Assembly: GCA_003344405.1 (NCBI GenBank)
Contig: NOWV01000176.1
Coordinates: 62,001-126,000, forward strand
DNA length: 64,000 nucleotides
Source of the DNA: Trichoplax sp. H2
Taxonomy: Eukaryota
Direction of reading: 5' to 3'
Under the pieces are notes generated by a model, which was not told where the DNA came from, did no database searches, and worked only from the letters and a program-made list of their open reading frames with translations. Numbering within the stretch: position 1 is the stretch's first letter; each line of letters opens with the position of its first letter. The position numbers were made by a program, and so were the translations under genes. Below are positions 43,706 to 54,168 of this stretch, piece after piece.

Positions 43706-44514
43706 ATGAAAAACCAAGTTGTCTTCCTCTGGGCTGTCGTATTTCTGGCTTGCTGTATGATATCAATTCAAGCAGCTAAACATAGTACCAATGATGAGTA
43801 CATGAAGGATATCGATCATCTCCAATACAATCATTTAGTGCATAAATGGGCAGGTTTAAAAGCAAAAAATCACCCTAGTCGCCATAATCATTTAGCGTTT
43901 GCAGAAGCTGACAAAACAGAAAAATACTATGCAAGAAGTAATGATAAATATCGTCGGGTAAGATTAACATCAAACACAGTAAAGATGTTAGCCTAGATTA
44001 CTCCATCATAATCTGCAGTAGCAGTCTTCATAACTGGTAAATTATATTTATGGAATGCATCTCTTGTTGATACTATAATTTTATTAGCTATAGCTTCCCC
44101 TCATAGAATCCCACAAGGGACTTATGTTGAGAGTTTCTTGCATGCGCAAATTGCCATACTTGTATATCTATAATTTATTAATATACCGAAATTTTATGAT
44201 ATAGTGCATGTATGGGACATATAAACACCATACTTCGCTATTAATCATCCTATATTTAATAATAAGCTCTTCTGATATTCGAATCTTGTATTAAAGAACA
44301 TGATAAAAATTATCTTGTAATTTTCTATAAATTAGAATTACGTAATAAATCAATATATTTAATCTCTTCTAATATTAATCACCTGTGAAAATTTCCTTTT
44401 CAGTGCTATTATCAGGGAGCATGTAACAGCCAAAGTAACCATTGCTGCATTGCCTGTGATGTCACTGTTGGTCAATGCTTAGCATCTCCACCAGATGTCG
44501 ATCCATTTCCATAA
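43706..44514 (+). CDS. Secreted prepropeptide A with C-terminal cystine-knot-like (C-C-CC-C-C) peptide; exons 43706-43957 and 44404-44514, 120 aa
   Basis: Signal peptide MKNQVVFLWAVVFLACCMISIQA, then a His-rich propeptide ending KYRR at the donor CGG|GTAAGA. After the acceptor TTTCCTTTTCAG the frame reads CYYQGACNSQSNHCCIACDVTVGQCLASPPDVDPFP*. Confidence 0.8.
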
Positions 44515-47500
44515 GAGAATCTACGTCAATATTAGCTGATTATAGTCAGAAATACGCCCATTCATACAATCAAATAGCAATTAATATTATGGATACTCCT
44601 AAATTACCCTTCCCTTCTATTCTATCTTGAGAATTTATTCTATAAAATTCATCAAATTTGATCATAATGCTTGACCAGGAAAATTATGAAATATTCAGCA
44701 ATAACGGTATTCTTAACGTATTCTCTATACATGATATTGTAGAAAAGTTGTAACTATTACAAATTTCTACGACAATAATTGTTAAATCTTGGATAGAATT
44801 TACAGTAACCATATATCTAGATACTCTTAATCGAATATAATAATTAGAGTATGATAATAACGACAGTATAATGAAGGATCTCCGCAATATATTATTCAGT
44901 TGATGCTTTTTCCGCCGATTATTTTCAGTATAATATATCTGCTGAAATACAGTTACTGCAAATCATTATGCAATGTAACTTAATGCAAACTAAACATCAT
45001 GCCGAAACAGAAATCTTGTCGGATTATAATCTTGAATTTATACTGATCAATATTTTATAGATTTAACTTGCTAATATAATATTACGTAGGTGATAACGAA
45101 AAAAAGTGAGGCGATGTAGTGGCAATAATAATTGAATAAACTTCTGCAACTTTGCAATTCAACATGTTGTGGGAATGAACATTGTGTTATAACAGAGAAC
45201 AAAGGATTTTAATTCTATCAAAAGTATTTTACTCTTTAATAATGATTTACGACTAGGCGACTGTTATAGTTAATAATCAGTACCATAATTTATTGCATAA
45301 ATCGAAGAAGCTTTACAGCTCATCAGTACCTTAGTGTCCCGTTCTTTATATTTGTCTTAGAGTTAAAAGTTAGCTAAATCGCCTGATTTTACCTCTAAAG
45401 AGATCAAACTTTTAATTTAACTGGATGTATATGCGAGAATTGGTTATTTTCTTCTTGTAACTTAATGAAATACTTATGCATGCAATAGATCACACTACCG
45501 TTCACTAGCAAAGATTCATATTGCTGCAATGGGATTGAAATATTTAACTTTTTTCTAAAAAATTTGGGATATCATTATCGTAGTAATTCTATTCTTTCCT
45601 ACATAATGCTGATTTAATCATCACCAACTGTGGTCATAATAATATACAAAAGTTATATGCAGACGTTTATTTCCGAATTTGCTTGCTATGAAACTAAACT
45701 CGTAATCTTGCAATAGCTAAAAAAATAAACTTTAAATCTATGCCATAAATCTTATGTAAGCCAATGGTAAATAAGCGTGTAATATGATCGCAATCGCCTA
45801 CCAACATAAAAATAACATGTCTATTGCAATGAAAATGTAAATAAAAGAGATCGATAGTGTAATAATAACATGCCTACAGTGTTTACAACTTGAAAATATC
45901 TTAAGATTACTTCTATCAGCTTAGCGGATAGAAAATATTTCGAAATATGAAGCCATTAATTAGTAAAGTGGATATTCAAAACAGCAATAGAAAGCCTGAT
46001 GTCGAAATAATTCAGTCTACGTCTTTAATTATTCAGCAACACGAGCATCACAAAGTGAAATAAGTTTAAGCTAAAGCTGTCATGAAGAGAGAGAAACTAA
46101 TCGATGTCATCTTCCAATATGTTTATTAGCCGTCAATATTTTTCAACATAAGTATAAAATTTTTATGGCCTTTGCTTTATCGAAAATAAATAAACGAGAA
46201 AATTATTTTAATTAACGGTTACATTAATAATTAATTATCTAATTTAGCTTCAAGAAATTGGTTGACATTAAGCTGTCTAAATTCATCATGATAAATTTCC
46301 TAATCATCACGCATGAGAACAAAAATATTTTGGATAGTCTAGACATCAGAATACAGCATTATGATTTGATAAAATTGACTACTAAAAAAACTACACCAGC
46401 CTAGTTGATCACATTTACATTTCTAATTCAATTACATATTAGCTCCAAAGAGGCATTTGAAATTGTTCAAAATACCGCAATGTATGTAGAATAGTTATCT
46501 AGACTGCGACTCATTAGGGGATATTTCAGTTTGTATTTCAGTTTTAGGAAGTCCATTTCATTTGTAATTCGATAATCCTAACCCCTAGATGTAAGTAATC
46601 ATATCTCCTTTAAGGTTATATATGATTTAATATTTGAATATTGTCGTTGTTAGCTATATAATATAATGCCAAATCATTTGATAAATAAAGGAAAAAATTT
46701 TCTAAATCTTGTAATATCGAACTCCACTTTAGCCGAAAACCTCGCTATGTTAGTCTACAAATGTATTTCAAATTTGATACAAGAAAATAATTCTCAAACA
46801 TTGGCTACTAATATTTAATGACCTTTGCGGTATTAGTAAATGATGAAATACTAATAACTAGAATGTTAGCATATGTCATTTCATAACACTGATGCTATTA
46901 ACAATTCTCCCAGCTCTAATCAAGATATCTTCCTTTATTATTAAAGTGAGATGGAGTTAACTAGATTCGGAGTGACATTTTGTCAAAAATACGAAGATGT
47001 AGAGCTTTGTTATCGAAACTTCGATGCCAAAAGCCGCAGTACATAATTAATATACGCATGTATAATTATATATCAAAAATTCGATTTCAAAATATTCCTG
47101 GTTTGACTTAAAGCCTTCATTGAAACGGCTAAAGCTTCAGTTTCTTTCTTAGATTTATTATTATTTGGCCAATAACTACAAAGAAAACAGCTAAAATATA
47201 TCATTAAGACTAGAAAAACTGGTATATACGGTATCACAATACAAATTCATGAAATAAATGTTATTGTAGAGATCTTACTCCAATTTGAAGTATTGCCCTT
47301 AGTGCTCTGCTCTTGGTAACAATTTCTCAGAATATATTAACGAAAAATCTCTCTTTTCTCTAAAGGAAAGGTTATTAATTTATTCTATTAGTTTATGGTG
47401 AATTCATGTCAATTTTCATCATTTTTTAACACATCGATTCTTTCTGCAACAGAGTAGGATACATTTGTAAGGATATACGAGCTTTAATTCATAAATGAGT

Positions 47501-53041: not shown

Positions 53042-54168
53042 ATGTCACACAAAATTTGTCTCCATTTGTCCATCTTAGCCGCCTTGGCTATCATCTGTCA
53101 AGCTAGATTGATTCAACGAAATGATGACTTTGATATACATGAAAGAGATGAATTATCACCGGAAAAAAGTGCAATGAAAAATCTCCCATGGCAAAATATT
53201 CGTCATGACGTTGATGATGATAAAGAATATATGGCATTAAAAAGTAAACGCGATGCCTACGAAAAAGGACAAGAGATATTATCCAATACTGACTTAACTC
53301 AGCCTATCCATGTAAATCCTTTGAAAGATTATTTATATCGAGCTGACGATAAAAGCAACCAAAAAATTCTCTATGTAAGTTTGTTGAGTTGATTATTTGC
53401 TGTAAAGCGTTGTATAGTATCCATAGATAACACTACGCGAAGAGTCTCAGTTGTTTCATTCTCATACTAATCAAACATGGTTAGCAATGCTTACATTGTT
53501 GCTTTTGCATCATTAGATGATTTAATAGATTATTGATCTGTTTAGACTGTAGTCTAAGCGGATAGTCCGTAGAGCTTTAATATATTTCCTATCCTATTAC
53601 TGAATTAGCTATATATGCAACTTTGTGTTACTTGTTTACGAATTTATAGCAATTCTCTGCAACCAACCGTAGTCAAGGATATATAAACTAAGCAGCTCCA
53701 ATAGTTTACATTTCTTTAAAAGAAATACAACCACATCAAAGTTACAATTATATATTGTTATTTGCGTAAAATTTATAAGTTTAAAAGTTACCTGTTAAAG
53801 TAGCTGTCATCAAAAGTTTACAAGATGTAGACTGTATGTATATAAAGTATTAATGGTACATATTATTCGACAGCCGTAACTACTTCCACAATATCGTTCA
53901 TAAATACTGTATTAAGATCAATACGTATATTTTCTATTCCGCTATTCCGGTCTAATTGGAATATATTTTGCATCTTGATTTTTTCCTTTATGCTGGACTT
54001 TACCTTTGATAACCGATTACAATGTTTGGATCGATGAATGCCTCATAGTGCAAATATGATGGCTTATGTACATCTGACGTACAATGTTGCACTAAGAAAT
54101 GTATTTCTGTTGGCAATAATAGCAAAGAATGTGTTGGAATTAGTGGAGCATTAATATTCTTTAAATAA
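53042..54168 (+). CDS. Secreted prepropeptide B with C-terminal cystine-knot-like peptide; exons 53042-53374 and 54049-54168, 150 aa
   Basis: Signal peptide MSHKICLHLSILAALAIICQA, an acidic propeptide with KSKR, and a consensus donor TAT|GTAAGT. After the acceptor CCTCATAG the frame reads CKYDGLCTSDVQCCTKKCISVGNNSKECVGISGALIFFK*. Confidence 0.8.

Follow-up and report, generated by a model that had tools for sequence, protein, structure and literature searches.

Knottins, mini-proteins with an inhibitor cystine knot (ICK), are known from many bilaterians, and the mature conotoxin is encoded on an exon of its own. Here we describe two genes, designated A and B, in a window of 64,000 nucleotides from the placozoan Trichoplax sp. 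H2 (assembly GCA_003344405.1, contig NOWV01000176.1, positions 62,001 to 126,000 of the forward strand; coordinates given below count from the first letter of this window). Each gene joins an exon for a candidate signal peptide and propeptide to a short exon encoding a six-cysteine domain, referred to as domain A and domain B, respectively. We consider it somewhat probable (roughly 0.55) that A and B are tandem paralogues for secreted, convertase-processed, knottin-type mini-proteins with three disulfides, which would act outside the cell.

The closest counterparts are the ICK prepropeptides of spider, scorpion and cone-snail venoms, in which a signal peptide and a propeptide precede a C-terminal C-C-CC-C-C domain of 30-40 residues; A and B appear to be built in the same way. 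The likeness extends to a dibasic cutting site directly in front of the first cysteine (Cys1) in A and to a predicted hairpin across Cys V and Cys VI. Moreover, venom ICK peptides form the nearest language-model clusters and the commonest structural matches. However, A and B do not reach the thresholds of the venom families PF02950, PF08116 and PF08099, and sequence matches in the PDB have E values of about 0.8. The placozoan host has no venom apparatus, and B differs further by a conserved stretch of 41 residues that separates Cys1 from the KR site, and by a hydrophobic C-terminal tail.

Knottins are also documented in cnidarians (PMC6627431) and sponges (PMC13418204). According to the searchable text of PMC6627431, the sea-anemone peptides PhcrTx1, BcsTx3 and NvePTx1 carry the classic ICK signature and were assigned by cysteine pattern before structure. 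They thereby resemble A and B, as they do in their non-bilaterian host, but unlike A and B they belong to venoms, and their activity on ASIC or Kv channels has been measured. The likeness is one of description; none of these peptides surfaced in our profile search of 1.84 billion representative proteins (see below). For the sponges, the searchable text of PMC13418204 reports that stryphnine precursors comprise signal, intermediate and mature regions, that their I-IV, II-V, III-VI knot is confirmed, and that asteropsins are highly anionic. The non-bilaterian host and the anionic character of domain A are features in common, whereas the same profile search found no sequence relation to sponge knottins, and nothing in A or B points to the pyroglutamate and the ester link present there.

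Results

A propeptide exon is spliced to a short six-cysteine exon in both genes

Transcript contigs of four public runs from four studies (X5, X7, X13 and X15) were aligned to positions 43500-54400 of the window. Run X15 is RNA on record. The other three were taken as RNA by guess, which fits their contigs in that these lack the GT..AG introns and, for X7, show a template-switch oligo as well as a poly(A) tail. The evidence from these runs consists of contigs, whose depth is not usable to rank expression.

A preliminary description of this DNA, made from the letters alone, had proposed that the junctions 43957/44404 in A and 53374/54049 in B create the six-cysteine reading frames. Indeed, both are joined in contigs of all four runs, with removal of a GT..AG intron that ends immediately before the first cysteine codon (Table 1). 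Each of the two joints is present in one contig per run; that of gene A is given in the output as 43956/44403, "cut +1". In A, 84 codons (43706-43957), followed by GTAAGA, are continued at 44404 behind TTTTCAG for another 36 amino acids up to the stop codon TAA at 44512-44514. In B, 111 codons (53042-53374), followed by GTAAGT, are continued at 54049 behind CATAG for 39 amino acids up to the stop codon TAA at 54166-54168. The resulting cysteine spacings are C-x5-C-x6-CC-x2-C-x6-C in A and C-x5-C-x5-CC-x3-C-x9-C in B, and the translations of both domains begin with the common motif C-x-Y-x-G-x-C. Thus, the design proposed for both genes (same strand; signal peptide, propeptide, phase-0 intron, six-cysteine exon) was recovered with the coordinates and translations given previously, except for the end of gene A.

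Transcripts of A and B measure about 0.75-1.05 kb. They start with a capped end or an exon of the 5' untranslated region (UTR) and finish with a poly(A) tail or an exon of the 3' UTR. The possibility that the cysteine exons are parts of larger, multidomain genes, which would have spoken against the preliminary description, was rejected because the transcripts are short and complete at both ends.

To what extent a pair of such frameworks could arise by chance was addressed by a six-frame scan of the whole window with a C-C-CC-C-C regular expression allowing generous loop lengths. The scan returned two matches, which are exactly genes A and B. When the window was simulated 200 times with a first-order Markov model, 191 of the simulated sequences contained no match, 9 contained one and none contained two (mean 0.045).

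The ends of both genes were derived from contig ends. In gene A, loose ends of 80 nt (X5) and 77 nt (X15) before 43703 match positions 43433-43462 exactly, which suggests a 5' UTR exon followed by a GC..AG intron at 43464-43703. The donor of this intron reads G/GCAAGT, and no contig joint spans it in the aligned range. Contigs of X13 (43684-43774) and X15 (43580-43732) run unspliced over the acceptor, pointing to intron retention or a second start. At the other end of gene A, AATAAA is found at 45135-45140, 22 nt upstream of the transcript end, and an X7 contig carries 22 A residues behind 45162. For gene B, an X7 contig starts at 52931 directly behind the template-switch oligo. Contigs of X5, X7 and X13 depart from the window sequence at 54170, the donor of the cysteine exon, and the loose ends behind this position, 171-199 nt in X5 and X13, match 55435-55464 exactly. 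The stop codon of B is located one base upstream of this donor, so that the entire last exon is 3' UTR. A stop codon one base before the last donor is an unusual arrangement, but one that is safe from nonsense-mediated decay.

Table 1. Positions of the features of genes A and B within the window
Feature	Position	Strand	Basis or remark
TATAAATA box, gene A	43357..43364	+	about 26-29 nt 5' of the probable transcript start; sequence read
Gene A exon 1, 5' untranslated, without ATG	43383..43463, start approximate	+	contig loose ends
Gene A exon 2: ATG 43706, predicted signal peptide (about residues 1-23), propeptide ending KYRR	43704..43957	+	
Gene A intron, GT..AG, phase 0, abuts first Cys codon	43958..44403	+	446 nt skipped, 4/4 runs
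Gene A last exon: six-Cys domain 44404-44511 (36 aa), then 3' UTR	44404..45162	+	
TATAAG, TATA-like element, gene B	52900..52905	+	about 30 nt 5' of transcript start; sequence read
Gene B exon 1: 5' UTR, ATG 53042, predicted signal peptide (about residues 1-21), propeptide with KSKR	52932..53374	+	
Gene B intron 1, GT..AG, phase 0, abuts first Cys codon	53375..54048	+	674 nt skipped, 4/4 runs
Gene B exon 2: six-Cys domain and hydrophobic tail, 39 aa; donor after 54169	54049..54169	+	
Gene B intron 2, GT..AG, in 3' UTR	54170..55433	+	suggested by loose ends
Gene B exon 3, 3' untranslated, AATAAA 55649-55654	55434..55670	+	end guessed; loose end at least 199 nt

Features of the precursors suggest secretion and processing

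At both N-termini, a few polar residues lead into a hydrophobic core, and a small-x-small site is present (IQA/A in A and CQA/R in B), with 12-residue Kyte-Doolittle maxima of 2.93 (residues 5-16) for A and 2.51 for B. These features suggest that both proteins carry a signal peptide that is cleaved off. Furthermore, the KYRR motif of A immediately precedes Cys1, which is the classical position for a proprotein convertase, and B contains a conserved KSKR motif at residues 67-70 (KR 69-70). On the basis of these motifs, both precursors may be cleaved by a convertase.

Compared with the window, the contigs of the four runs differ at 10 coding positions. The part of A encoding signal peptide and propeptide carries three synonymous and three amino-acid changes, while its cysteine domain carries none. 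In B, two synonymous and one amino-acid change are present in exon 1 and one synonymous change in the cysteine domain. The numbers are small; the variation is in line with a constrained mature domain, and no more than that.

A and B resemble each other and have few relatives in the databases

When A and B were compared by BLASTP, a match of 23.1 bits (E 7e-4; 12/31 residues identical) was obtained, which covers the end of the propeptide and the first three cysteine loops. This likeness, the identical position and phase of the intron, the common strand and the adjacency of the genes fit an old tandem duplication, bearing out the previous designation of A and B as old paralogues. At the DNA level, the genes share no similarity except for one 48-nt pair with 75% identity. 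This pair is a direct repeat (45515-45562 and 55313-55360, spacing 9798 nt), one copy of which follows the poly(A) site of gene A at a distance of about 350 nt, while the other is located within intron 2 of gene B; it may have been left over from the duplication or have arisen by chance.

A profile of A and B was searched against 1.84 billion representative proteins. In the underlying MAFFT alignment, on which the inputs for fold prediction rest as well, the CC pairs of the two proteins are offset by one column. Six matches were obtained at E<=0.001, i.e. three Trichoplax records, P0007 and P0008, which are 123-aa open reading frames (ORFs) from ENA/Logan contigs, and P0009. The latter, a protein of 1438 aa with 7 matched stretches and several unrelated, insignificant Pfam families, is probably repetitive and was dropped as spurious. 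Exon 1 of gene B shares 48% identity with P0007 and 39% with P0008, and both ORFs run past ...LY into "VS...". We read them as genomic exon-1 read-throughs of B orthologues from sources that are further removed but have the donor at the corresponding position, since "VS..." is what a gene caller unaware of introns would obtain by translating through a GTnAGn donor. In the three-way alignment of B, P0007 and P0008, the KR dipeptide (residues 69-70) is invariant in 3/3 sequences and the stretch VN.LKD..YRAD...QK.LY before the intron is conserved. [quoted passage not shown]

Two further searches extended the set of relatives in neither case. A scan of JGI metagenomes for orthologue DNA gave 258 pattern matches with no relative among them, and a word-index search with the three-sequence profile, which gave 159 candidates, recovered nothing beyond the 4 proteins known before.

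A knottin-type fold is predicted for domain B

The order C-C-CC-C-C and the loop lengths of both domains are within the range of the ICK signature as given in the searchable text of PMC6627431. AlphaFold2 models domain B with a mean predicted local distance difference test (pLDDT) score of 78.7, reaching 86-89 over residues 1-30, and places strands at residues 17-20 and 26-29. These strands form a predicted beta-hairpin across Cys V and Cys VI; a hairpin at the same place is predicted for domain A (strands 17-19 and 24-27) with low confidence.

The model of domain B was compared with 48,161 PDB representatives using VIA-align, yielding 37 chains at Z>=2. The best match was Hc3a (Z 3.5; root-mean-square deviation (rmsd) 1.6 Å over 32 residues), and Aps III was matched with Z 3.0 (rmsd 1.6 Å over 30 residues); both are spider toxins. 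According to their titles, 22 of the 37 chains are spider, scorpion, cone-snail or sea-anemone peptides, and about six plant or arthropod mini-proteins and AgRP are also present. The title of one match, tachystatin B (Z 2.4), names the inhibitory cystine-knot motif; the other titles are silent on this point, and we take most of these proteins to be ICK folds. The remaining matches include Dickkopf, IGFBP, Draxin, colipase, omwaprin, a carboxypeptidase inhibitor, a P2X fragment and "murinotoxin-1", which was left unplaced. Foldseek returned four rows for domain B, all with E>4, among them a scorpion toxin, a ZNRF3-binding peptide and leginsulin, presumably knottins although their titles do not say so. 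Language-model neighbours of both full proteins are clusters of spider-toxin, conotoxin and cyclotide precursors with scores of 0.83-0.87, which are below 0.9 and count as a lead only. A structure search in the Atlas with the Atlas model of domain A (pLDDT 0.55) produced bacterial rows that were discarded as meaningless.

Alternatively, the six cysteines might support a different, non-knotted three-disulfide fold, in which case the ICK likeness would be one of cysteine spacing alone. This would apply to A in particular, whose model is unreliable and unmatched, and it is consistent with Z scores that do not exceed 3.5, with Dickkopf, IGFBP, colipase, omwaprin and P2X ectodomain pieces among the matches, and with the fact that no ICK family of Pfam was reached. 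However, the loops fit the "classic" CXnCXnCCXnCXnC signature as presented in the searchable text of PMC6627431, both models contain the predicted hairpin at Cys V and Cys VI, and most of the 37 matches of B are chains that we take to be ICK peptides. We regard a non-knotted fold as unlikely.

Several results weigh against A and B being knottin-type mini-proteins released by a convertase. All structural scores of B are weak (Z<=3.5; Foldseek E>4) and may reflect a common arrangement only, and the alignments used for fold prediction comprised two sequences each. The model of domain A has a pLDDT of 63.4 and matched 0 of the 48,161 representatives at Z>=2, and Foldseek returned a single row for it, a spider-toxin mutant with E 9.8. 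In Pfam, the best matches of B were PF08116 Toxin_29 (PhTx; 19.7 bits, E 8.6e-4, residues 111-130) and PF08099 Toxin_27 (calcins; 12.7 bits), each with a cut-off of 25; A had no match, and no family came above the cut-off for either protein. The conotoxin O-superfamily PF02950 gave no match at E<=10 with the exon translations or at E<=1 with the full proteins. By sequence, B retrieved imperatoxin A (13.6 bits) and maurocalcin (13.5 bits) from the PDB with E of about 0.8, while A retrieved nothing. As for processing, B has no basic site beside Cys1. Domain A is acidic, which sets it apart from cationic antimicrobial peptides and many channel toxins. Finally, the B orthologues P0007 and P0008 are known from exon 1 alone, with the cysteine exon not among them, and protein searches including the profile search of 1.84 billion representatives retrieved no orthologue of gene A outside the Trichoplax records.

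Low Z scores are inherent to models of 39 residues, and the structural matches of B lend moderate support to a knottin fold without amounting to proof; the poor model of domain A is evidence neither for nor against it. Taken together, the knottin assignment of the preliminary description is supported by the cysteine framework of A and B and by the knottin-like fold predicted for B, but it gained nothing from the Pfam toxin families or from the model of A.

Both genes are deposited, one of them also as a faulty model

The preliminary description had called the genes hidden, which is not the case: public entries for hypothetical or predicted proteins already contain both genes with the very same exons, namely two Trichoplax records for A and one of Trichoplax sp. 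H2 for B. The spliced model of A is identical to a 120-aa "predicted protein" of Trichoplax adhaerens (XP_002107671.1, B3RIX7) and to TrispH2_009938, and that of B is identical to TrispH2_009939 of Trichoplax sp. H2 (150 aa, P0004). The two genes follow one another directly in the numbering of H2 and are annotated but unnamed. The database names also confirm that the DNA comes from a non-bilaterian animal, Trichoplax (Placozoa), as had been suspected.

The translation of exon 1 of gene B is in addition 100% identical to TRIADDRAFT_51408 of T. adhaerens (168 aa, P0005). This model (53042-55557) skips the cysteine exon and proceeds from exon 1 to 54687-54734 and then to the last exon (from about 55432), which is read as coding. 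The aligned contigs, which were followed up to 54400, lend no support to this path, and all four runs include the cysteine exon. TRIADDRAFT_51408 is thus a faulty public model of gene B, whereas the model of Trichoplax sp. H2 agrees with the transcripts. A minor isoform may use the exon 54687-54734.

No paper on A, B or any placozoan knottin was found in the searchable full texts. In the searchable text of PMC12013895, which deals with placozoan secretory cell types, "conotoxin" and "knot" have 0 occurrences. In that of PMC9545775, "cystine knot" is present solely in a reference on bursicon, and in that of PMC6733828, "conotoxin-like" concerns a cubozoan.

Surroundings of the gene pair

Between A and B, contig pieces of several runs align at 47991-48189 and 50248-50641 with 90-95% likeness and many loose ends on both sides; their probable source is the transcription of dispersed repeats, not a gene. 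Upstream of A, ORFs at 26426-34227 (+) encode an AMP-binding enzyme and its C-terminal domain in several exons, the ORF at 39612-40187 (+) encodes a LOH1CR12/BORCS5-like protein (E 2.7e-22) and the ORF at 19220-19576 (-) encodes a nucleoside diphosphate kinase, each according to Pfam. All three are ordinary animal genes.

Discussion

On the basis of their precursors and predicted folds, we propose the following route for A and B. The signal peptide would lead the precursor into the secretory pathway, where a proprotein convertase would cut A after KYRR and before Cys1 to release an acidic peptide of 36 aa. In B, the cut would occur at KSKR (residues 67-70), leaving a product of 80 aa with the cysteine domain as its C-terminal half. 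The six cysteines would lock the C-terminal domain into a compact ICK-type fold with three disulfides and a beta-hairpin, and the freed mini-protein would bind a surface protein or a membrane outside the cell. For both proteins, we infer the two cleavages, the knot, the secretion and the target.

The preliminary description had envisaged a toxin, defence or signalling peptide family, and such roles are conjecture. Tentatively, and at slightly less than even odds, we lean towards an effector in defence or feeding that would be released from epithelial or gland cells. This role, suggested by analogy, is favoured because most animal knottins act on foreign targets, because A and B exhibit neither an amidation signal nor repeated peptide copies, and because the genes were assembled in every whole-animal run examined. 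Only a slim chance is assigned to a protease inhibitor, and a slightly larger, still small one to something else altogether.

An endogenous role is possible, though doubtful: A and B could be paracrine or hormone-like signals from peptidergic gland cells, which would act on channels or receptors of neighbouring cells to control ciliary gliding, feeding pauses and contraction. The architecture of both precursors, a signal peptide followed by dibasic sites, is that of a prohormone, and the KR site of B is conserved in 3/3 sequences along with the adjoining propeptide motif. Moreover, the structural matches of B include AgRP (Z 2.2), a knottin that serves as an endogenous ligand, and many secreted peptides and distinct peptidergic cell types are reported for placozoans in the searchable texts of PMC12013895 and PMC9545775. 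However, the precursors differ from those of amidated neuropeptides, with which they share the signal-like N-terminus and the dibasic sites: A ends with ...DPFP and B with ...IFFK, i.e. without a C-terminal Gly, and neither contains repeats. The main text of PMC12013895 also has 0 occurrences of "51408" or of "51407", the latter being a guessed tag for gene A.

A role as antimicrobial or antifungal peptides that shape the grazed biofilm, similar to tachystatins or to knottin antimicrobials of plants and insects, appears very unlikely for the pair as a whole. The chains matched by domain B include tachystatin B (Z 2.4) as well as Ep-AMP1 from a cactus (Z 2.0), and domain B is mildly cationic (5 Lys/Arg vs 3 Asp/Glu) with a hydrophobic C-terminal tail. 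The ventral epithelial cells of Trichoplax are, furthermore, reported to be rich in putative antimicrobial peptides in the searchable text of PMC12013895. The published candidates are arminin-like and not rich in cysteines according to the same text, however, and domain A is anionic (0 Lys/Arg, 3 Asp/Glu), so that this role would fit B better than A.

Returning to the view of A and B as secreted knottin-type mini-proteins, they constitute a sequence family that is new but belongs to a familiar structural kind, and this kind is without a description from Placozoa in the searchable literature. The fold class is ordinary, and the value of the finding lies mainly in being a lead for work at the bench. 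One public gene model, TRIADDRAFT_51408, is corrected as well; its omission of the cysteine exon may explain why the protein was overlooked in analyses based on T. adhaerens. Feeding and locomotion of placozoans are coordinated entirely via secreted peptides, and in view of this reliance A and B are added candidates for signalling, defence against predators and control of microbial films. A more far-reaching idea, which we consider decidedly unlikely, is that A and B are phylum-specific endogenous knottin ligands of placozoans, gating or blocking ion channels of neighbouring cells. If true, a fold familiar from toxins would serve cell-to-cell signalling in an animal without neurons, and the intron before Cys1 would reflect an ancient modular design, in which the cystine-knot exon evolves apart from the exon for targeting and propeptide.

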